DNA of 64,000 bases from Burkholderiales bacterium. GTDB lineage: Bacteria; Pseudomonadota; Gammaproteobacteria; Burkholderiales; SG8-39. The DNA is taken from NCBI GenBank assembly GCA_020848075.1, contig JADLAV010000031.1:90840-154839 (forward strand), given 5' to 3'. Shown piece after piece: positions 3,778 to 47,658 of the stretch (positions are counted from its first letter, which is position 1; each line of letters starts with the position of its first letter). Under the pieces are notes generated by a model that was not told where the DNA came from, made no database searches, and saw only the letters and a program-made list of their open reading frames with translations. The position numbers and the translations under genes are program-made.

Positions 3778-3913
3778 GCGGCGGCGGGCGGGCTCGAGGT
3801 CGCGGCGATTCTAAACCAGTTTCGCGGCGCGCAAGGCGGCGGCCCGGGACCCCTCGCGCATCGAAAAGCATCGGCGGAAGCCGACCAGACGCTGGCGCGG
3901 GCGCGCGCGCCGC

Positions 3914-3953
3914 ACCGGACCGGACCGGACCGAACCGAACCGAACCGAACCGA
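3914..3953 (+). repeat. Pentanucleotide microsatellite (ACCGG)3(ACCGA)5
   Basis: Eight uninterrupted 5-bp units read directly, in the divergent bcp/roxA intergenic region. Confidence 0.95.
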
Positions 3954-3961
3954 GCGATCAA

Positions 3962-3967
3962 TATAAT
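3962..3967 (+). promoter_or_regulatory. Perfect -10 hexamer TATAAT, 6 nt upstream of the roxA ATG (possible leaderless transcript)
   Basis: The sequence is tataat cgcgcg ATG. There is no Shine-Dalgarno sequence between the hexamer and the ATG at 3974, and no good -35 is visible because the microsatellite occupies that position. Confidence 0.3.
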
Positions 3968-3973
3968 CGCGCG

Positions 3974-5140
3974 ATGCGGTCCACCTTGCTCGGCGGCCTT
4001 GCGCCGGCGGCATTCCTTTCGCGCTACTGGCAGCGGCGCCCGCTGCTGGTGCGGGGTGCGGTTCCGGGCTTCCGGGATCTGGTGAGCGTGACGGAGCTCT
4101 TCCGCATCGCGTCATCCCCGGACGCGGAGTCGCGCGTCGTGCGGCGAGATGGCCGCAGATGGCAGCTCGCCCAGGGGCCGTTCGCCACCGCCGAGCTTCG
4201 CTGCATGCCCGGCAGGCGCTGGACGCTGCTCGTCCAGGGCGTGAATCACTTCGCGCCGCGAGTCGACCGCCTCATGCGGCGGTTTGCGTTCCTCCCGTAC
4301 GCGCGGCTGGACGACGTCATGGTGAGCTACGCCGCCCCGGGCGGCGGCGTGGGGCCGCACGTGGACTCGTACGACGTTTTTCTCGTCCAGGGGCTCGGCC
4401 GGCGCCGATGGCGATTCGCGCCACCGGGCAGGCATCGGCTTGATCCGCGCGCGCCACTCGAGATCATCGCCGACTTCACACCGGCGACCGAATGGATCGC
4501 CGGGCCGGGCGATCTCATCTATCTGCCGCCGGGGTGGGTGCACGAGGGTGCCGCGCTCGAGCCCTGCCTCACCTACTCGATCGGCTTTCGCGCGCCTTCC
4601 GCGCAGGAGCTCGCGGTGGCCTATCTCCAGTTCCTCGAGGACCACATCGAGCGGGCCGGCCGGTACCGGGATCCGGGGCTCGCGCCCCAGCGCTCGCCCG
4701 CCCGGCTCGGCGACGATCTGATCGCGCGTGCGGTTCGCCTGCTGAAGGGATTGCCGGGAACGCGTGCCGTGCAGACGCGCTTTCTCGGACGCTACCTCAG
4801 CGAGCCGAAGCCGCACGTGACCTTTCGCAAACCGGCGCGCGCGCTCGGCGCGCGCGCATTCGCCCGTGCCATCGCGCGCCGCGGCGTGCGGCTCGCGCCG
4901 GCGACGATCGTGCTCTATCGCGGTCGCACCTTGTACGTTAACGGCGAGGAGGCGCCGATCGGCGCCGCCGGGAGCGCGCTTCGGCGCCTGGCGAACCGGC
5001 GCGTGCTCGCACCGCCCGTGCGCATCCCGCCGAAAACCGTCGCCCTCCTGCGTGCATGGTACCTTTCCGGATATCTGCTCGTGGGCGTCCGGGCGCGCGA
5101 GCGCGACGGTCTGGACATCGACGGAGGATCGGATGGATGA
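3974..5140 (+). CDS. roxA: JmjC/cupin-4 ribosomal protein oxygenase (YcfD/RoxA-like, L16 arginine hydroxylase family)
   Basis: 388 aa. N-terminus LLGGLAPAAFLSRYWQRRPLLVRGAVPGF resembles YcfD. Fe(II) ligands HVDSYD (HxD) and a later WVHEG. Confidence 0.75.
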   Translation: MRSTLLGGLAPAAFLSRYWQRRPLLVRGAVPGFRDLVSVTELFRIASSPDAESRVVRRDGRRWQLAQGPFATAELRCMPGRRWTLLVQGVNHFAPRVDRLMRRFAFLPYARLDDVMVSYAAPGGGVGPHVDSYDVFLVQGLGRRRWRFAPPGRHRLDPRAPLEIIADFTPATEWIAGPGDLIYLPPGWVHEGAALEPCLTYSIGFRAPSAQELAVAYLQFLEDHIERAGRYRDPGLAPQRSPARLGDDLIARAVRLLKGLPGTRAVQTRFLGRYLSEPKPHVTFRKPARALGARAFARAIARRGVRLAPATIVLYRGRTLYVNGEEAPIGAAGSALRRLANRRVLAPPVRIPPKTVALLRAWYLSGYLLVGVRARERDGLDIDGGSDG

Positions 5141-37929: not shown

Positions 37930-40900
37930 TCAACCCCGGCGCGGAAAGGCGAAGATGCTCGCCGTGCGCAGCATCGTGCGCTCGAATTCGCTCGCCGGCA
38001 CCGGCGGGAGCAGCAGGTTGCCCAGGTACTCGCCGCACCCCATGTCGCGCAGGAGGTGCAGCTCGGCCTCCCGCTCGACGCCTTCGGCGATCGTCTCGAG
38101 CTGCAGGCTGCGCGCCATGTCGATGATCGCGCGCACCACGATGCGGTCGTCCTGGCTGGTCCCCATCAGGCGGATGAACGAGCGGTCGATCTTGATCGCA
38201 TGCACGCCCAGCCGGCGCAGCTCGCTCATCGACGAGTAGCCGGTGCCGAAGTCGTCGACCACGATGCGCACGCCCAGCTCGCGCAGCTTGCCCGTGATGC
38301 TGCGGCTCTCCTCGACGTTGCGCGTCAGCGCGCGCTCGGTCACCTCGATTTCGAGGAGCTCGGGCTCCAGACCGCTCGACTGCAGCGCCTCGGTCACCCT
38401 GCCGAGGAGCGCCTGGTTGAACTGCTTGGCCGAGAAGTTCACCGCCACCGCGAACGGCGGGCCGTGCAGCGCGTTCCACGCCTTGGTCTGGTTGCACGCG
38501 GTCTGCAGCACCCACTCCCCGAATACGTGGATCATGCCGGTCTCTTCGACCACGCGCATGAACCGGGCGGGGCCGACGAGCCCGTGCTCCGGGTGGGCCC
38601 AGCGGAGCAGCGCCTCCGCGCCGGTGAGCCTGCCGGACACGATGTCGACGCGCGGCTGATAGAACACGCGCAGCTCGCCCCGCTCGAGGGCGCCGCGCAA
38701 CGCCTCTTCCAGCTTCAACCGCTCGGTCGCCCGGACGTTCATGTCCGAGGAGAAGAACTGATAGTTCTTGCGCCCGCCGGACTTCGCCGCGTACATGGCC
38801 GTGTCCGCGTGGCGCATCAGCGTCGCCGCATCTGCCCCGTCCGTCGGATAGATCGCGATGCCGACGCTCCCCGCCGTGTTCACCGTGTGCCCGTCGAGCA
38901 CGCAAGGCGCGGCGAGCGCGTTCAGGATCTTCTGCGCCACCTGCCCGGCGTCGTCGGGCGACTTGAGGCCCTCCAGCACGATCACGAACTCGTCGCCGCC
39001 GAGCCGCGAGAGCGTGTCGCCCTTGCGCACGACGCCGCCCAGGCGCCGGGCGACCTCCTTCAGCAGCAGGTCGCCGACCTGGTGACCGAACGTATCGTTG
39101 ATGTTCTTGAAATGATCGAGGTCGATGAACAGCACCGCGAGCAGTTCTCCCTCGCGCTGTGCGCTCAGCAATCCCTGCGCGAGGCGGTCTCCCAGGAGCA
39201 GCCGGTTCGGCAACCCGGTCAGCGGGTCCCGCGTGGCGAGCTCCTCGATCCGGTGCTCGGCGCGCTTGCGTTCGGTGATGTCGAGCGCAGTGCCGCGGTA
39301 GCCCCGCGCCCGCCCGGTCTCATCCAGAATCGGGACGCCGCTCACGAGTTGCCACACCAGGCTGCCCGAGCGGGCGAACACGCCGAACTCGATGTTCCGG
39401 AACGGCTGGCTCTGGGCCGCGAGCTCGGCAACCAGGCCGCCGACGCGCTCCGCCTCGCCGGGCGGCATCAGATCGGTCGCCTTGCGCCCGTAGAGCTCCT
39501 CCGGCGGGTAGCCGAGCACCTGCTCGGCCCGGCGCGAGAGATAGCTGAAGCGACCCTTGACGTCGGTCTCCCAGACGTACTCCCCGGCGGCCTCGGCGAA
39601 ATCGCGAAAGCGGCGCTCGCTCATCTTGAGCTGCCGCTCGGCGCGCTTGAGCGCCGTGATGTCCATGGCGGAGGTGAGCAGGCGCCGCTCGCCGGCGAGA
39701 TCGATCGCGTCGGAGGAAACGAGCACGTCGGCGATCTCGCCCGATCGCTTGCGCATGCGGTACTCGAGGTTGTGTGCCGTGCCGCCCGCAGCGAGCCGCG
39801 CCGTGAAATCCGCGCGATCTTCCGGCGTGAGCCAGATGCCGATCTCGACCGGAGTCCGGCCCAGGACCTCCTCCCGCGCATAGCCGAAGAAACCGACCCA
39901 GGCCTGGTTCACCTCGATGTAGCGGCCGTCCGCGGGCTCGCTGATCACCACGGGCACCGGGCTCGCGTGGAAGATCTTAGAGAACCGCTGCTCCGATTCG
40001 GTGAGCAGCCGCTCGGCGCGCTTGCGCTCGGTGACGTCCATGCCAGTCGAGAGCACCACCGTCTCGCCGCCGAACTCGACGCGCTGGCCGAAGAAGAGGA
40101 CATCGACCGACTCCCCGTTCGCCTTGCGCCAGGTGCACTCGAAATCGCGGACCAGGCCTGTCGCCTGCATCGCGTCGTCCACGCGCTTCCGCGAATCCGG
40201 ATCGCTCCACAGCCCGATCTCGGCGAAGCTCCGTCCGCGAACGTCCTCTCGCGCGAAGCCGAAGGTGCGCACCCACGCGTCGTTCACCGCCAGGATGCGC
40301 CCCTCCTCCCAGGTGGAGATCGCGAGCGGCTGCGGGCTCCCCCGGAACATCGCCTCGAGCCGCCTGCGCGATTCGCGCAGCTCGCGCTCCGTGCGATTGC
40401 GCTCGCTCACGTCGATCAGCGATCCGACGACGCACTTCACGCCGCGGAGCTCGACCACGGCGCCCGAGTAGAGCACGTCTGCCGCGCCGCCGCCGGGCCG
40501 CCGGACCCGGAGTTGCACGTCCCGCACCGCGCCGTCCGACTCGAGACCGCGCCGGATCGTCTCGCGCGCTTCCGGGTTCTCGAGGAGGTCGAGCTCCGCC
40601 ACGGTGCGGCCGAGCGCCTGGTCGCGCGACAGGCCGGAGAGCTCGCACCACGCCGCGTTCACCTCGATCAGCACGAGGCCGGACAGCCGGCTGAGCACCA
40701 TCGCCTGCGGGCTCGAATGGAAGAGATGCGCGAAGAGCTGCTCGGAGTCGCGCAGCGCCTGCTCGGCGCGCTGCTCTGCGGTCACGTCCCGGCCCACGCC
40801 GCGGTAGCCGCGGAATTCGCCCGCGTGGTCGAGCACGGGTTCCCCGCTCACCAGGACGTGCCGGGCGCTGCCATCGAGCAGGACGCGCTTCAGCTGCAGA

Positions 40901-42078
40901 TCGCGAAACGGACGGCGCGCCGCGAGGTCGGCCTGATGCGCCTCCCACCCGCCGCTCACGGGCGCGAGCCCCTGCACTTCCCAGGGTCGCCTGCCGACCG
41001 CCGGGTCGGGCATGACGCCCGAGGGCTGCTCGACTTTCTCGGTCATGGACGTGAAGCGGAGATGCTCGTCCATCTCCCAGTACCAGTCGGCCGCGAGCCG
41101 GGTCAGGCTGCGGAATCGCGCCTCGCTCTCCTCGATTCGCAACCGATCGTCCCGGGCCGCCGCCCCGAGCGCGCACAACGTGAGCGTCAGCACGCCGAGC
41201 GCAGCGAGCACCGCGTAGAGCGCCGCGGCGGCGTACGGGTCCGGTCCGAAAGCCATGGACGGTCCGCCGAGCATTGCCGCCCCCAGCATGCAGGTCGCCG
41301 CGACCGCGAGATTGAAAGTCGCCACCTCGCGGAGCTCGAAGCGGATCGCCGGCAGCACGGCGATCGGCGCGAGCGCGAAGGCGACGACGGGGAACCCGAC
41401 GTGGAAGCCGAACGCGCTCGCGAGCACGCGCGGCCCGTACAGCAGGACGAGTGCGATCAGCGCCCCGTATGCGAGGGCGCCCGCGGCAGCGCGATCCGGG
41501 CGTGGCCGTGCTACCCAGCCGAACACCGCGGGTGCGGCGATCAGCATCCCGAACGCATCTTCGCCCCACCACGCGAGCCAGACGCCGAGCGCCGCGCCGG
41601 CTTCCCCTGCGCCGGCGAGAAGCAGGCTCGCGGTCCCGGCGGTGGCACCGATGCTGGACGCGCCGATGGCCGCGACGAAGACGAGCAGGGACACGTCACG
41701 CGCGCGTCGTAGCGCGCACGTGAATCCCTCGATGCTCGCGAGCAGCTTGGCGCCCACGAGCGCCTCGATCGTCGCGCCCGCACCGAGCGCGGCGGCCACG
41801 CCGAGGGGCTGCCCCGACCAAACGGCCGCGGCCAGCGCACCGACGAACACGCCGAGGGCGAGGCGTGCCCCGAACAGTACCAGCGCCGCGAGCGACAGAC
41901 CGGATGCGAGCCAGATCGCCGGTACCGCGTCGTGCAGCCCGGGGAAGGCCGCGCCGATGCGCGCCGCGAGCACGTAGGCAAGCGCGAGGGCCGCCGTCGC
42001 CAGGCCCTGCGTGCCGAGTTGCCGCAGACGCGGCATCGCCCCTCCGGGCTGCCTAGCGGCGGGCCGGGGCGAAGTCAT
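37930..42078 (-). CDS. Membrane sensor MASE1-like N-terminus, multiple PAS domains, GGDEF and EAL
   Basis: 1382 aa. About 300 aa of polytopic N-terminus and repeated PAS-like segments. I-site RKGD-x5-GGDEF is intact. EAL motifs EALLR, DDFGTGYSS. Confidence 0.88.
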   Translation of the reverse strand: MTSPRPAARQPGGAMPRLRQLGTQGLATAALALAYVLAARIGAAFPGLHDAVPAIWLASGLSLAALVLFGARLALGVFVGALAAAVWSGQPLGVAAALGAGATIEALVGAKLLASIEGFTCALRRARDVSLLVFVAAIGASSIGATAGTASLLLAGAGEAGAALGVWLAWWGEDAFGMLIAAPAVFGWVARPRPDRAAAGALAYGALIALVLLYGPRVLASAFGFHVGFPVVAFALAPIAVLPAIRFELREVATFNLAVAATCMLGAAMLGGPSMAFGPDPYAAAALYAVLAALGVLTLTLCALGAAARDDRLRIEESEARFRSLTRLAADWYWEMDEHLRFTSMTEKVEQPSGVMPDPAVGRRPWEVQGLAPVSGGWEAHQADLAARRPFRDLQLKRVLLDGSARHVLVSGEPVLDHAGEFRGYRGVGRDVTAEQRAEQALRDSEQLFAHLFHSSPQAMVLSRLSGLVLIEVNAAWCELSGLSRDQALGRTVAELDLLENPEARETIRRGLESDGAVRDVQLRVRRPGGGAADVLYSGAVVELRGVKCVVGSLIDVSERNRTERELRESRRRLEAMFRGSPQPLAISTWEEGRILAVNDAWVRTFGFAREDVRGRSFAEIGLWSDPDSRKRVDDAMQATGLVRDFECTWRKANGESVDVLFFGQRVEFGGETVVLSTGMDVTERKRAERLLTESEQRFSKIFHASPVPVVISEPADGRYIEVNQAWVGFFGYAREEVLGRTPVEIGIWLTPEDRADFTARLAAGGTAHNLEYRMRKRSGEIADVLVSSDAIDLAGERRLLTSAMDITALKRAERQLKMSERRFRDFAEAAGEYVWETDVKGRFSYLSRRAEQVLGYPPEELYGRKATDLMPPGEAERVGGLVAELAAQSQPFRNIEFGVFARSGSLVWQLVSGVPILDETGRARGYRGTALDITERKRAEHRIEELATRDPLTGLPNRLLLGDRLAQGLLSAQREGELLAVLFIDLDHFKNINDTFGHQVGDLLLKEVARRLGGVVRKGDTLSRLGGDEFVIVLEGLKSPDDAGQVAQKILNALAAPCVLDGHTVNTAGSVGIAIYPTDGADAATLMRHADTAMYAAKSGGRKNYQFFSSDMNVRATERLKLEEALRGALERGELRVFYQPRVDIVSGRLTGAEALLRWAHPEHGLVGPARFMRVVEETGMIHVFGEWVLQTACNQTKAWNALHGPPFAVAVNFSAKQFNQALLGRVTEALQSSGLEPELLEIEVTERALTRNVEESRSITGKLRELGVRIVVDDFGTGYSSMSELRRLGVHAIKIDRSFIRLMGTSQDDRIVVRAIIDMARSLQLETIAEGVEREAELHLLRDMGCGEYLGNLLLPPVPASEFERTMLRTASIFAFPRRG

Positions 42079-42130
42079 GACCTGAGCACCGGGAGCAGCG
42101 CACGCTGAATGCCCTCTGGTGCGCTTTCGC

Positions 42131-43930
42131 TCAATGGTCGGGCTGGTGCGGCGGGGCGGCTTGGAGCACTTCCTCGAAGGTCGTGAGCCCGGCGGCGACC
42201 TTCATCGCGCCACTGATGCGCAGACTCTTCATGCCCTCCTTGTAGGCCTGCTCGCGGATCTGCCCGAGGTCGGCCTGACCGCTGATCAGCTTCTTGATGG
42301 CGGGCGACAGGAGCATGACCTCGTAGATGCCACTGCGGCCGCGAAACCCGGTCATCCGGCAATCGAGGCAGCCGACCGCCCGGTAGATATGGTGCGGACG
42401 GCGCGCCTTCCACGGCGCGACCAGCTCCTCCCACGACACGTCGGCCGCGCGCTCCGCCCCGTACGGGACCTTCTGCTTGCAATGCGGGCACAGCGTGCGG
42501 ACCAGCCGCTGCGCCATGACGCCGAGGATCGTCGCGTTCAACAGGTAGGCCGGAACGCCGAGATCGAGCAGCCGCGTCACCGCCGAGGACGCGTCGTTGG
42601 TGTGCAGCGTCGAGAGCACCAGGTGGCCGGTGAGCGCCGCCTGGATCGCCATCTCCGCGGTCTCCAGGTCGCGGATTTCGCCGACCATGATGATGTCCGG
42701 ATCCTGCCGCATCAGCGCGCGGACGCCCTCGGCGAAGGAGAGATCGATCGCGGTCTGCACCTGCATCTGGTTGAACGCCGGCTCGATCATCTCGATCGGG
42801 TCCTCGATCGTGCAGACGTTCACCTCGGGCGTCGCGAGCGACTTCAGCGTCGAGTAGAGCGTCGTCGTCTTGCCCGAGCCGGTCGGCCCGGTCACGAGGA
42901 TGATCCCGTTCGGCTTCGCGGTCATGTCGTTCCAGCGCGCCTGGTCCTCCTCCGAGAACCCGAGCTCGCTGAAGTCCTTGACCAGCACCTCCGGATCGAA
43001 GATGCGCATCACCAGCTTCTCGCCGAACGCGGTCGGCAGGGTGGACAACCGCAGCTCCACCTCCTGCCCGTCCACGGTGCGGGTCTTGATGCGCCCGTCC
43101 TGCGGCCGGCGCTTGTCGACGACATCCATGCGGCCGAGGATCTTGATCCGGCTCGTCATCGCGGCGACGACCGGCATCGGCAGGGTGTAGACGTTGTGCA
43201 GGACGCCGTCGATCCGGAACCGCACGTTGCCGAGCTCGCGCCGCGGCTCGATGTGGATGTCGCTCGCGCGCTGGTCGAACGCGTACTGCCACAGCCAGTC
43301 GACGATGTGGACGATGTGCTGGTCGTTCGCGTCGAGCTGGCGGTTCGACTTGCCGAGCTCGACCAGCTGCTCGAAGTTGGAGAGCTCGGAGCGGCTCTCC
43401 CCGGTCTTCGCGGCGCGCTTGACCGACTTCGCGAGGTTGTAGAACTCGACGATGTAGCGGTTGATGTCGAGCGGATTCGCGAAGACCCGCTTGATCTCGA
43501 GCTTGAGGATGCGCGCGAGCTCCTGCTGCCACTCCTTGAGGTGCGGCTCGGCCGTCGCGATCACGGCCTCCTTGCTGTTTAAGTCGACCGGCAGGATCTT
43601 GAAGCGCTCGGCATAGGCGCTCGACATGATGTCGGTCACCGCCGCGAAGTTGATCTTGAGCGGGTCGACGTGGAAATAGGGCAGACCGACCTTGCCCGCG
43701 TACCACTCGGTGAGGAACTCGAGCGTGAGCGGCCGGTTGGGCGGCAGGGCCGACTTCCACTTCTGGTCGGCGAGGACGACGAGCGGGTGGACGCCGCCGC
43801 GGTGCATGCGCCGCTCGCCGGCCAGCCGCTCGCATTCCTCGCGCGGAACGTGCCCGTCGGCGACGAGATCGTTCACGACCTCGGCGAGGGTGAGGCGGCG
43901 TTCCTGCTGGGCGACGGCGACGACGGCCAT
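42131..43930 (-). CDS. GspE/PilB-family secretion ATPase (orphan)
   Basis: Met 113 of ORF 42131..44266 (599 aa). T2SSE_N-like region, Walker A GPTGSGKTT, Walker B DPDIIMVGEIRD, tetracysteine CPHC...CLDC. Confidence 0.85.
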   Translation of the reverse strand: MAVVAVAQQERRLTLAEVVNDLVADGHVPREECERLAGERRMHRGGVHPLVVLADQKWKSALPPNRPLTLEFLTEWYAGKVGLPYFHVDPLKINFAAVTDIMSSAYAERFKILPVDLNSKEAVIATAEPHLKEWQQELARILKLEIKRVFANPLDINRYIVEFYNLAKSVKRAAKTGESRSELSNFEQLVELGKSNRQLDANDQHIVHIVDWLWQYAFDQRASDIHIEPRRELGNVRFRIDGVLHNVYTLPMPVVAAMTSRIKILGRMDVVDKRRPQDGRIKTRTVDGQEVELRLSTLPTAFGEKLVMRIFDPEVLVKDFSELGFSEEDQARWNDMTAKPNGIILVTGPTGSGKTTTLYSTLKSLATPEVNVCTIEDPIEMIEPAFNQMQVQTAIDLSFAEGVRALMRQDPDIIMVGEIRDLETAEMAIQAALTGHLVLSTLHTNDASSAVTRLLDLGVPAYLLNATILGVMAQRLVRTLCPHCKQKVPYGAERAADVSWEELVAPWKARRPHHIYRAVGCLDCRMTGFRGRSGIYEVMLLSPAIKKLISGQADLGQIREQAYKEGMKSLRISGAMKVAAGLTTFEEVLQAAPPHQPDH

Positions 43931-44108
43931 GGTGCGGGAGGCAAGCGTGAACGAACGGCCGACTATAGCCGCAAAGCCCTTGTCTCTCAACGGCTTTCCG
44001 GCCGCGCTGCGTGACGGTTTTTGACTTTGCGGTGAACTTCCGCCATCCTCGCCGGCAGCGTCAAGCCGCCATCCACCCGCTTTGTCGATCGCACCGAGAG
44101 AGGACCCC

Positions 44109-44612
44109 ATGACCATCCAAGTCGGCAATCGCCTCCCCGACGGCGAACTCGAGGAGCACAACGAGACCGACCAGCCGGGCTGCCCGATCGGCCCCACCAA
44201 GCACTCGGTCGCGGCGCTCGCGAAAGGGAAGAAGATCGTGATCATCGGGCTGCCCGGCGCGTTCACGCCGACGTGCTCGGCGAAGCACGTGCCGAGCTAC
44301 GTCCAGAACTTCGACGCCCTGCGCGCAAAGGGCGTCGACGAGGTCTGGTGCATCTCGGTGAACGACGTGTGGGTCATGGGCGCCTGGGGGCGCGATCAGA
44401 AGGCAGTCGGCAAGGTGCGCATGCTGGCCGACGGTCAGGCCGATTACACGAAGAAGCTCGGTCTCGAGCTCGACCTGACCGGTCGCGGCTGGGGCATCCG
44501 GGCGAAGCGTTACTCGATGCTGGTCGAGGACGGCGTCGTGAGGCGGATCAACGTCGAGGCGCCCGGCAAGTACGAGGTGTCCGGCGCCGAGGCGATGCTC
44601 GCCCAGCTCTGA
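44109..44612 (+). CDS. Prx5-type (atypical 2-Cys) peroxiredoxin
   Basis: Met 10 of ORF 44082..44612 after gagagagga (167 aa). Active site LPGAFTPTCS. Confidence 0.85.
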   Translation: MTIQVGNRLPDGELEEHNETDQPGCPIGPTKHSVAALAKGKKIVIIGLPGAFTPTCSAKHVPSYVQNFDALRAKGVDEVWCISVNDVWVMGAWGRDQKAVGKVRMLADGQADYTKKLGLELDLTGRGWGIRAKRYSMLVEDGVVRRINVEAPGKYEVSGAEAMLAQL

Positions 44613-44705
44613 CGCGCCGGAGCGCGCCCGCGGACATCGCGCGGTCTGCCGGCGTGTGACCGGCGACACCCCGACGGCACGGGAGGGCGCTCGCCCGGCC
44701 CCGCT

Positions 44706-44770
44706 TCTCGCCGATAATTCTCGCCGATAATTCTCGCCGATAATTCTCGCCGATAATTCTCGCCGATAAT
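44706..44770 (+). repeat. Five perfect tandem copies of the 13-bp unit TCTCGCCGATAAT
   Basis: Read directly. Units are at 44706, 44719, 44732, 44745 and 44758. The array ends 36 nt before the ATG at 44807. Confidence 0.97.
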
Positions 44771-44806
44771 CGGGCCGGACTCCGCCATCCGTGGCCGCCC
44801 ACCGGC

Positions 44807-45748
44807 ATGAAGATCCTGATCGTCGACGACTCGCGCACCATCCGCGCCGCCCTGGAGGCAATGGTCACCCGTCTCGGCCATGCGACGATGACGGCGAAGA
44901 GCGGCGGCGAGGCGCTCCAGCGTTTCGTGCACGAGCGTCCCGACCTCGTGCTGCTCGACGTGACGATGCCCGACCTCGACGGCTACGCCGTCGCCCGCAA
45001 GCTGCGCGACCTCTCCGGGAGCGACTGGCTGCCGATCATCTTCCTCTCGGCGAGCGACGAGGACCAGGACCTCGACCGCGCGATCAGCGCCGGCGGCGAC
45101 GACTACCTCGTCAAGCCGGTGAGCCAGGTCGTCCTCGGGGCGAAGATCCGCGCGATGCAGCGCATCGACGCGATGCACCGCAATCTGGCGCGCCTCTCGG
45201 CCGACCTCGAGACCGCGAACCGGGAGCTCGCACGTATCTCGCGGGAAGACGGCCTCACGAAGCTCGCGAATCGCAGGCGGTTCGACGAGCACCTGCGCGT
45301 CGAGCTCCAGCGCGCGACGCGCACGGGCCAGCCGCTGTCGCTCGCGCTGTGCGACGTCGACCACTTCAAGGGCTACAACGATCGGTACGGCCACGCGCAG
45401 GGCGACGAATGCCTGAAGCAGGTGGCGCAGGTGCTGCGGCGCGAGTGCCGCCGGCCCACCGACCTCGCCGCGCGCTACGGGGGTGAGGAGTTCGCGCTCG
45501 TCCTGCCCGACACGCCGCTCTGGGGCGCGGCCGAGGTCGCCGAGCGCGTGCGCCGCGCCCTGGAGGCACAGGCGATCCCGCACGCCGCCTCGAAGGCGGC
45601 CGACATCGTCACGCTGAGCGTGGGTGTGGCGTGCGCCGAGCCTCGCGCCCAGACGGCGGCGGAGCGCCTGATCGAGTGGGCGGACAGGGCGCTCTACCGG
45701 GCGAAGGAGATCGGCCGCAACCGGGTGGTCGCGGCCTCGAGCGGTTAG
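44807..45748 (+). CDS. Response-regulator diguanylate cyclase (REC-GGDEF, PleD/WspR-like)
   Basis: 313 aa. Phospho-acceptor context [13 protein letters not shown]; I-site RPTD-x5-GGEEF. Confidence 0.9.
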
Positions 45749-47658
45749 GCCTCGCCGGGCGCGACGACGAACTCGACCATGAGGTCGTTCATCCGCCGCA
45801 CGAAGCCTGCCGGATCCTCGAGCGTGCCCCCTTCCGCGAGGAGTGCCTGCTCGAAGAGGAGAAGCGCCCAATCGTCGAAACGCCGCTCCTCCCACTTCAG
45901 CCGTCGCAGCATCAGGTGATCGGGATTCACCTCGAGGATCGGCTTCCATTGCGGCGCCGCCTGCCCGACCGCCTTCAGAATCCGCTGCAGGTTCCCGCCG
46001 ACGTCGAGCTCGTCGGCCACCAGGCACGCCGGCGAGGCGGTGAGCCGGCGGCTGAGGCGCACGTCCTTCACGCGCTCGCCGAGCGCCTGCTTCAACCGCG
46101 CGAGCACGTCCTTGTACTCGTCTGCCTGCTCCGCCTGCTCCGCCTTCGCCGCGTCGCCGGCAAGCTTGCCGAGATCGAGGTCGCCGCGCGCCACCGAGAC
46201 GAGCGGCTTGCCCTCGAATTCAGGCAGATGCGCGACCACCCACTCGTCGACGCGATCGTGCAGGAGCAGCACCTCCACGCCCTTCTCGCGGAACACCTCC
46301 AGGTGGGGGCTGTTGCGTGCCGCCAGGAACGACTCCGCGGTCACGTAGTAGATCGACGCCTGCCCCTCCTTCATGCGCCCGACGTAGTCGGCGAGCGACA
46401 CCGTCTGGGCATCGGTGTCGGCGTGCGTGGAGGCAAAGCGCAGGAGCTTCGCGATGCGCTCCCGGTTCGCAGCGTCTTCCCCCACCCCTTCCTTGAATAC
46501 CCGGCCGAACTCCGCCCAGAACTTCGCGTACTTCTCCGGCTCGCTCGTTGCGAGCTCGTCGAGCATCCCGAGCACCCGCCGTGCGCAGCCCGAGCGGATC
46601 GCCTCGACGTCCTTCGATTCCTGCAGGATCTCGCGCGAGATATTGAGCGGCAGGTCGTTCGAGTCCACCACGCCGCGCACGAAGCGCAGGTAGGCCGGCA
46701 GCAGCTCGCCGGCGTCCTCCATGATGAAGACGCGCCGGACGTAGAGCTTGATCCCCTTGCGCTGGTGCCGGTCCCACAGGTCGAACGGCGCGTGCGACGG
46801 GACGTAGAGGAGCTGCGTGTACTCCTGCCGGCCCTCGACCTTGTTGTGGGTCCAGGCGAGGGCGGGCTCGAAATCGTGGGCGACGTGCTTGTAGAACTCC
46901 TGGTACTGCTCCTCGCTGATTTCGGCGCGCGGGCGCGCCCACAGCGCGCTCGCCTGGTTGACCGTCTCCTCCTCCTCGCCCGTCCGGTAGGCCTTCTTCG
47001 CGTCGTCCCAGACCCGCTTCTTCATCAGGATCGGGATGCCGATGTGGTCGGAGTAGCGCCGGATGATCGCCTGGAGCCTCCCGTCGTCCAGCAGCTCGTC
47101 CTCGCCCTCGCGCAGGTGCAGGATGACGTCGGTGCCACGGCCCGGCTTTTCCGCGGCTTCGAGCGTGTACTCGCCCTCGCCGGCCGACTCCCAGCGCACC
47201 GCCGCCTCGGGCGGCAGTCCGGCGCGCCGGGTGACGACGGTCACGCGGTCGGCGACGATGAACGACGAGTAGAACCCGACGCCGAACTGGCCGATCAGGC
47301 GCGCGTCCTTCGCCTGGTCGCCCGTGAGCGAGGCGAGGAACTCCCGCGTCCCGGACTTGGCGATCGTGCCGATGTTCGCGATCACCTCGTCGCGGGACAT
47401 GCCGACCCCGTTGTCCGATACCGTGATCGTCCGGGCGTCGCCGTCCGCGCTGACGCGGATGCGCAGCTCACCGTCCTCCGCCATCAGGCCGGCGTTCGAG
47501 AGCGTCTCGAAGCGAAGCTTGTCGGCCGCGTCCGACGCGTTCGACACGAGCTCGCGGAGGAAGATCTCCTTGTTGCTGTACAACGCATGGACCATGAGGT
47601 GGAGGAGCTGCTTCACCTCGGTTTGGAATGCAAGAGTCTGTTTTTCTACGGCAGTCAT
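45745..47658 (-). CDS. htpG: Molecular chaperone HtpG (Hsp90)
   Basis: 637 aa. N-terminal [34 protein letters not shown]. Confidence 0.95.

Follow-up and report, generated by a model that had tools for sequence, protein, structure and literature searches.

Locus and gene neighbourhood

The window, by which we mean the whole 64-kb stretch of DNA that was analysed, carries a tandem array of five 13-bp units between a Prx5-type peroxiredoxin gene and a gene for a REC-GGDEF diguanylate cyclase (Table 1). Pfam places a Redoxin domain upstream of the array and Response_reg plus GGDEF downstream. The intergenic gap, measured from the Prx5 stop (44612) to the cyclase ATG (44807), is 194 bp. The last GATAAT of the array ends at 44770, 36 nt before the ATG, and direct reading finds no AGGAGG-like Shine-Dalgarno sequence before this start codon, so that the preliminary description of the DNA had the geometry of the gap right throughout. 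Within the stretch between array and start codon, GCCGG...CCGGC could form a small hairpin abutting the AUG.

Table 1 Features at the array locus and its surroundings (window coordinates)
Feature	Coordinates	Strand	Basis or remark
MASE1-PAS-GGDEF-EAL protein, 1382 aa	37930-42078	minus	Pfam
MshEN-domain T2SSE ATPase	42131-44266	minus	Pfam
Prx5-type peroxiredoxin (Redoxin) gene	44109-44612	+	ORF list, Pfam; 167-aa form agrees with gene calls in relatives
Unique upstream flank, 83% GC	44613-44705	+	-35 scan, repeat search
Tandem array (TCTCGCCGATAAT)x5	44706-44770	+	Read-out, Tandem Repeats Finder
First GCCGATAA box	44710-44717	+	Ancestral upstream context kept
Middle GCCGATAA boxes	44723-30, 44736-43, 44749-56	+	8/8 sigma-28 -10 match
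Last GCCGATAA box	44762-44769	+	Overlaps GATAAT 44765-44770; ancestral 36-nt ATG distance kept
Array-to-ATG stretch, 36 nt, without Shine-Dalgarno	44771-44806	+	Direct reading, folding
WspR-type REC-GGDEF diguanylate cyclase gene	44807-45748	+	Pfam, PDB matches, motifs in translation
HtpG	45745-47658	minus	Pfam

The cyclase protein has one REC domain, with DD at residues 7-8 and D51 as acceptor, and an RPTD I-site five residues before GGEEF. Its best full-length PDB matches are to WspR (3i5a, 6e-64, and 3bre), whereas PleD aligns with it only from residue 155, via the second REC plus GGDEF. The enzyme had at first been labelled PleD-like. Because it has a single REC rather than a REC-REC-GGDEF architecture, and because the full-length structure matches are WspR, we classify it as WspR-type.

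The minus-strand region 37930-44266, divergent from the Prx5/GGDEF pair, is a c-di-GMP neighbourhood made up of the T2SSE ATPase and the MASE1-PAS-GGDEF-EAL protein. MshEN is a domain family known to bind c-di-GMP. On the other side, the cyclase gene and htpG are convergent, with stop codons that overlap by 4 bp (45745-45748) in the window and in locus L001; in relatives the gap between the two genes ranges from 14 to about 375 bp. The remainder of the window is ordinary housekeeping DNA, and no flagellar, chemotaxis or fliA gene occurs among its 46 ORFs. Exact-protein look-ups for Prx5 (167 aa) and HtpG returned no record.

A perfect and locus-specific array

Direct read-out of 44706-44770 gives five head-to-tail copies of TCTCGCCGATAAT with zero mismatches. 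Tandem Repeats Finder reports 44705-44770 with period 13, 5.1 copies and 100% matches, and its score of 132 is the highest among the 79 rows returned for the 64-kb window. The five perfect copies described initially are borne out by both. A head-to-tail repeat tract within a promoter or ORF, represented here by five perfect 13-bp units 36 nt before the ATG, is one feature of an SSR/VNTR contingency locus, and we class the array as a promoter-proximal VNTR, a known class. Its GC content is 46%, against 83% in the flanks and 69% in the window, which puts it in the lowest 0.08% of 65-bp windows. When up to two mismatches are allowed, TCTCGCCGATAAT has 7 matches in the window, compared with 1.39 +/- 1.14 in shuffles (at least 7 in 0/100 shuffles). 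The search for further copies that the preliminary description had proposed thus finds, in the window, exact matches in the array alone, together with two matches elsewhere that carry two mismatches each. The upstream flank (44613-44705) has no further copies in the window, nor does it contain a sigma-70 or sigma-28 -35 element.

Several other classes of element were considered and rejected. A dispersed repeat, MITE or REP element does not fit, as the unit and flanks do not recur in the window; the 12-mer core occurs in the loci of the clade at this locus only, with single chance matches in the unrelated loci L052 and L062. A Fur box consists of three or more adjacent GATAAT-like hexamers with 6-bp periodicity, forming a 19-bp box. 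Here TCTCGCC stands between successive hexamers, giving a period of 13 bp, and a Fur-box array was rejected on this ground. A DnaA box (TTATCGGCG, 6/9) and oriC 13-mers have the wrong pattern or periodicity, and the locus is an ordinary housekeeping region. Coding across the array is discounted because the 13-bp period rotates the frame and the spanning ORFs are only antisense high-GC artefacts. A structured 5' leader or a hairpin following Prx5 was rejected because a single relative, L105 (z = -2.5), is the only case with a significant z-score. Across 44000-45200, Rfam at E<=1 gives one chance miRNA match (20.7 bits vs a gathering score of 70), and there is no intrinsic terminator.

Two other intergenic arrays occur in the window. 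At 3910-3953 (with 3962-3976), (CCGGA)x3(CCGAA)x4-5, of period 5 and 8.8 copies, lies directly upstream of TCAATATAAT. It occupies the -35/spacer region of a JmjC/RoxA-like gene, and the TATAAT there ends 6 nt before the ATG (3974) of that gene, as would be expected of a leaderless mRNA. At 1485-1526, an imperfect 9-bp unit (CTCCCGGTT) repeated 4.6 times fills most of the 69-bp gap between the stop of a YjeF-type gene (1482) and the ATG (1552) of an SbmA/BacA-like ABC transporter gene. The presence of three promoter-proximal arrays in 64 kb suggests a genome-wide tendency.

Copy number across assemblies

We compared copy number in assembled contigs from five data sets. The identical REC-GGDEF protein is encoded on four other public contigs. 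WBZR01039853.1 (2379 bp), from an independent assembly of the same population, has five copies and differs from the window by 2 SNPs. The other three, Logan contigs of SRR11294019, SRR11294028 and SRR9827768 (L002, L003 and L004), are 100% identical to the window and begin exactly 30 nt (k-1) inside the array. As a k=31 de Bruijn graph branches only if a pure-repeat 30-mer recurs, a break 30 nt into the array implies at least four units; the Logan contigs of single-copy relatives pass through the site unbroken. The copy numbers in these five assembly-level data sets are therefore 5, 5, at least 4, at least 4 and at least 4, with no other allele seen. Of the JGI metagenome contigs scanned, the already known WBZR contig alone has two adjoining units.

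Because the same five copies are found in a second independent assembly, the array is real and not an accident of the assembly of one contig. The breaks within the array do indicate that assemblers struggle there, a point in favour of reading the count of five as an artefact of short-read metagenome assembly. This explanation is nevertheless exceedingly improbable: two independent assemblies agree on five copies, the array (65 bp) is below typical read length, and the break pattern itself needs at least four copies, whereas single-copy relatives assemble through. As a side observation, the points at which k-mer contigs break set a minimum for the length of a tandem repeat, and short arrays fragment k-mer assemblies.

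The same counts bear on the model of the preliminary description, a phase-variable contingency locus in which frequent slippage would switch or grade cyclase transcription stochastically within populations. Variable copy number, the property that defines such a locus, was not seen in the five data sets. A perfect array of five 13-bp units is a slippage substrate, and mutation rates of 5e-5 to 2e-4 per generation are known for comparable VNTRs of Burkholderia (PMC1853098). The minus strand of the array (44700-44776), folded as ssDNA, forms a long interrupted hairpin of -27.8 kcal/mol (z = -7.15, 0/200 shuffles), and the plus strand gives -11.6 kcal/mol (z = -0.34); the minus-strand hairpin may favour slippage on one strand. 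Enzymes of c-di-GMP turnover do phase-vary, by other mechanisms (PMC11868660). Against this, both array-resolving assemblies have five copies despite the 2 SNPs between them, the three further assemblies imply at least four with no different allele, and five copies are few in comparison with the 9-30 of hypervariable Burkholderia loci (PMC1853098). There is also no -35 element whose spacing could shift. We consider a contingency locus of this kind quite unlikely, and phase variation at the array is unproven, given that the assemblies show no copy-number difference.

A single conserved box in related lineages

A protein search retrieved cyclase orthologues at 77-94% identity, on contigs that keep the gene order MshE-like ATPase, Prx5, REC-GGDEF, HtpG. 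Orthologues in GTDB species representatives were of no use, since the best of them shares 60% identity and lacks synteny (L005). Four related lineages (17 contigs from many samples, 88-94% protein identity) have exactly one copy of the unit, TCTCGTCGATAAT. They comprise the sister of the window lineage (L099-103, 93.6% protein identity) and three lineages that are all 88-89% identical (L104, L105-109 and L086-089). In these single-copy lineages the gap is 140-157 bp, GATAAT ends 34-36 nt before the ATG, and there is no Shine-Dalgarno sequence. Farther relatives (77-83% identity, L090-098) have a gap of 61-82 bp, no box, a GTG start and a Shine-Dalgarno-like GGAG/GGGG. The absence of the box in these farther relatives implies that it arose as part of a remodelling, specific to this clade, through which the gene acquired an upstream region of its own. 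Comparison of 44771-44809 with L090-L098 indicates that the upstream region and the translation-initiation signals changed together, the box-bearing clade having an ATG start and no Shine-Dalgarno sequence.

For the analysis of conservation, the window array was collapsed to one unit and five lineages were aligned. Within the unit, 12/13 columns are invariant, compared with 41/129 elsewhere in the intergenic region (Fisher p = 2.8e-5), and the unit ranks 1-2 for conservation among all 13-mers of the region. Conservation extends over the whole 13-mer plus the next base (TCTCGYCGATAATC). The sole variable column is position 6, which is T in the four relatives and C in all five window copies. Since the sister lineage and the three outgroup lineages all have T, C is the derived state. 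Either the T-to-C change preceded the expansion or the array was homogenised later, as far as the alignment indicates. The arithmetic of the gap agrees with expansion in place: 194 - 52 = 142 bp, near the 140-141 bp of relatives.

From these contigs, the ancestor is reconstructed with one box, TCTCGTCGATAAT, at 34-36 nt from the ATG, and column conservation across the five lineages compared establishes purifying selection on it. As the relatives have a single copy at the same distance from the ATG, and as this copy has top conservation, the array is, on comparative grounds, a lineage-specific 1-to-5 amplification of a conserved cis-element and not of arbitrary DNA. Two suggestions of the preliminary description gain in substance here. 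Recent expansion, which had been named beside active maintenance as an implication of the perfect identity of the copies, agrees with the single copy in four related lineages and with the derived base common to all five window copies. The regulatory appearance of the unit is matched by the highest conservation in the intergenic region and by its fixed position 34-36 nt from the start codon.

The box as a putative -10 element

Every unit contains GATAAT, a 5/6 match to the sigma-70 -10 hexamer. A scan for consensus sigma-70 promoters across 44000-45200 gives 0 sites, the best -35 match at any spacing of 15-19 bp is 3/6 in every unit and lineage, and the TGn of an extended -10 is absent, the bases before the hexamer being GCC or GTC. 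The -10-like hexamer that had been noted in each unit thus stands as a sequence match, but not as part of a recognisable sigma-70 promoter, and it can be read at least equally well as part of a sigma-28 -10 box. The accompanying proposal, that gain or loss of a unit would shift spacing by 13 bp, has no -35 to act on.

Each unit also contains GCCGATAA, which matches the sigma-28 (FliA) -10 consensus at 8/8 positions, a match recognised post hoc. In the sigma-28 -10 consensus, GCCGATAA, the GC serves as an extended -10 (PMC12784957). The relatives have GTCGATAA, which matches at 7/8, so that the derived T-to-C change lifts the match from 7/8 to 8/8; GTCGATAA variants are among the sites bound by FliA in vivo (PMC4183435, Table 2). 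In E. coli, the promoter from which FliA drives yhjH/pdeH, the gene of a c-di-GMP phosphodiesterase, has the identical decamer CGCCGATAAT as its -10 region (PMC4183435). Outside the array there is one other GCCGATAA in the 64 kb, within a coding region. Direct reading of the window and the four relatives finds only 0-3/7 matches to a sigma-28 -35 (TCTAAAG/TAAA(G) at N14-15), and inner units offer only TAAT, at N17. The conserved TCTC of the box and its trailing TC fit neither sigma consensus. With the -15..-8 box numbering in PMC12784957, the start site predicted from the last box would be at about 44777.

Sequence matches and conservation make it most likely that the box serves as the -10 region in a promoter that either depends on an activator or needs no -35. 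Sigma-28/FliA would be the more specific reading, with the sigma-70 GATAAT as the alternative. Two further promoter classes were rejected. For sigma-54 (GG-N10-GC), direct reading finds the GGCAC of the upstream flank wrongly spaced to any GC. For an ECF-type GGAC...CGTC, the two parts lie too far apart (19-20 nt), and the T-to-C change of the window destroys CGTC.

Upstream of the array, at 44655-44670 (+), lies a weak CRP-family-like site, TGTGACCGGCGACACC, with TGTGA-N6-ACACC and 8/10 core positions, centred about -62.5 from the predicted start site of the first box. Three of the four relatives (L099, L105 and L086) have a counterpart that scores 7-8/10, at -60.5 to -63.5. CRP-like sites number 4 in the window vs 9.5 in shuffles, and lineages differ by 3 bp in how far the site lies from the box. 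We regard the site as a weak lead only, one that is not statistically convincing alone.

The extent of the conserved block allows another reading, in which the box is the binding site of a regulator rather than a -10 element and five adjacent sites would alter repression or activation. Conservation of the 13-mer plus the next base goes beyond the requirement of any sigma consensus. By direct reading, the box contains a small palindrome, TCG-N-CGA, whose free centre is the sole variable position, and the unit junctions create a 10/12 palindrome, CGATAATTCTCG. A palindrome of 3+3 is weak evidence, however, and the confinement of the motif to this locus (window and 109 loci) gives no sign of a regulon. 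The 13-bp spacing would set sites about 86 degrees apart on the helix, which is awkward for cooperative binding, and Pfam assignments reveal no adjoining regulator gene. On balance we think an operator array unlikely.

Another possibility is that the box acts in the mRNA leader, where UCGUCGAU would pair with codons 5-9 (AUCGUCGACGA) and mask the start, so that amplification alters the pairing. The box does pair with the IVDD codons in the consensus fold and, for each of the four relatives, in the minimum-free-energy fold, but the z-scores are only -0.5 to -2.2 and the pairs of the helix are all invariant, with no covariation. In the window, the T-to-C change breaks a pair without compensation (z = +0.6). 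Moreover, a box that serves as a -10 element would lie outside the transcript of the promoter to which it belongs. This explanation is very improbable indeed.

Proposed origin and effect of the amplification

Taking the promoter reading forward, we propose that the array is a lineage-specific 1-to-5 tandem amplification of the conserved 13-bp -10 region of the cyclase's own promoter, an interpretation to which we give about an even chance. The simplest origin would be a tandem duplication between 1-nt microhomologies (T...T) that replication slippage then extended, and the quasi-palindromic unit junction may have aided expansion. By construction, the upstream geometry of the ancestor is kept at the first box and its distance to the ATG at the last. 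With four units more than the ancestor, the array is longer by 52 bp, or 4.95 turns at 10.5 bp per turn, which places the upstream DNA on nearly the same helix face relative to the last box. RNA polymerase would then be offered five registers, 13 bp apart, in an easily melting 65-bp stretch of 46% GC. The leaders would be about 29 to 81 nt long, with starts from upstream boxes giving leaders up to 52 nt longer. A promoter without a -35 probably relies on an activator or on the -10 region alone, and the T-to-C change, in completing the sigma-28 -10 box, would be an up-type change. The net effect is probably a heritable quantitative change in cyclase transcription, most likely an increase. A perfect array of this kind could gain or lose units, although rapid switching here is unproven.

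Alternatively, the array may be a tolerated product of slippage that leaves expression essentially unchanged. Tandem duplication preserves both junctions by construction, and the two other start-codon-proximal intergenic arrays in the same 64 kb (1485-1526 and 3910-3953) suggest a general mutational tendency. RNA structure in the extended leader is not significant (z = 0.30 for the full array plus leader). The exact overlap of the amplified 13 bp with the most conserved 13-mer (rank 1-2) nevertheless argues, at the level of sequence, against random neutral duplication, by which such a coincidence would be unlikely. The base change that completes the sigma-28 consensus co-occurs with the amplification, and four extra -10-like boxes in or near the initially transcribed region would be unlikely to have no effect. 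A mutational bias toward the box is possible, since no other part of the 83% GC spacer is AT-rich and quasi-palindromic. We consider a neutral array doubtful, though a conceivable outcome.

A more specific version of the promoter reading combines it with copy-number variation: a contingency locus whose unit is the sigma-28 -10 box, in which the number set by slippage would grade the drive of the flagellar sigma factor on the WspR-type cyclase. We judge this very unlikely. If it were true, the motility programme of an uncultured environmental Burkholderiales would be coupled to c-di-GMP synthesis in a manner both stochastic and heritable.

If transcription is altered, the locus would be a clean natural case of promoter evolution by multiplication of a core -10 box, in which metagenomes reveal the one-copy ancestor as well as the enabling substitution and the descendant with its expanded array, and in which the target, a cyclase, controls the motile/sessile switch. 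If there is no effect, the array is one more intergenic VNTR, useful as a strain marker and as a warning on k-mer assembly breaks.

Comparison with known systems

The preliminary description held that repeat-based variation is not commonly described in GC-rich proteobacteria, a view that is outdated in the light of the arrays of Burkholderia mallei and B. pseudomallei (~68% GC; PMC1853098, PMC1574311). Arrays number in the hundreds in B. pseudomallei, where most have units of 6-9 bp in 4-10 copies; ~70% are intergenic, and they mutate at >1e-5 per generation (PMC1853098). In B. mallei, indels arise on passage in intergenic SSRs with units of 7-14 nt, many near promoters (PMC1574311). The array described here resembles these loci in its Burkholderiales host, high GC, head-to-tail units within the 6-14 bp range and intergenic location, and presumably in its slippage-driven character; many of the Burkholderia loci also lie within 40 bp of ORFs or near promoters, as here (PMC1853098, PMC1574311). 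It differs in that those loci are polymorphic and usually have 9-30 copies, whereas here there are five, no polymorphism is seen, and the locus-unique unit is a conserved cis-element.

Promoter tandem repeats of 54-58 bp in M. tuberculosis (dop, lpdA and cysG) are phase-variable and alter expression (PMC12817950). They too occur in a GC-rich organism that is not a classical case of phase variation, with tandem copies of promoter sequence immediately before a gene, the number of copies being presumed to determine how strong the promoter is (PMC12817950). In M. tuberculosis, however, the unit is a whole promoter and variation occurs within and between strains, while here the unit is 13 bp and would cover the -10 region only. 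A whole promoter per unit (-35, spacer and -10) takes about 50-60 bp, and the 13-bp unit makes no -35.

Promoter repeat tracts that switch or grade expression are a classical phenomenon. Graded expression is known from the 7-bp promoter repeats of Haemophilus influenzae hmw1A/hmw2A (PMC2424069, PMC8262952), and in Neisseria meningitidis nadA a TAAA tract changes the spacing of distal promoter elements (PMC2791445). The likeness is that a tract in the promoter region grades expression rather than switching it strictly on or off. In contrast to the present array, those tracts are spacers and not a core element, they belong to AT-rich host-adapted pathogens, and both their variability and their phenotype have been demonstrated. 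Should the amplification alter transcription, repeat-driven expression variation would extend from host-adapted pathogens to uncultured environmental Burkholderiales.

Compared with the FliA class 3 promoters (E. coli yhjH/pdeH, PMC4183435; P. aeruginosa fliC, PMC12784957), the box shares GCCGATAA at 8/8 positions and the yhjH decamer CGCCGATAAT at 10/10, its target is likewise in c-di-GMP metabolism, and the predicted leader length is compatible. The TAAA(G) -35 at N14-15 of these promoters is missing here, the box occurs five times in tandem, and the target is a cyclase, whereas E. coli yhjH/pdeH is a phosphodiesterase.

Finally, c-di-GMP enzymes with phase-variable expression include C. difficile pdcB/pdcC, with invertible promoters, and the E. 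coli sfa-linked phosphodiesterase; such variation is known only via invertible or epigenetic promoters of phosphodiesterases (PMC11868660). Like these systems, the array alters, in cis and heritably, the promoter region of a gene for c-di-GMP turnover, but those act by site-specific inversion or a Dam-type switch on phosphodiesterases, and here a repeat array lies before a cyclase. An effect of the amplification on transcription would also carry repeat-driven expression variation from c-di-GMP phosphodiesterases to a cyclase. The array differs from the known systems in three respects: the repeated unit appears to be the -10 box itself, its single-copy ancestor is visible, and the target is a cyclase.
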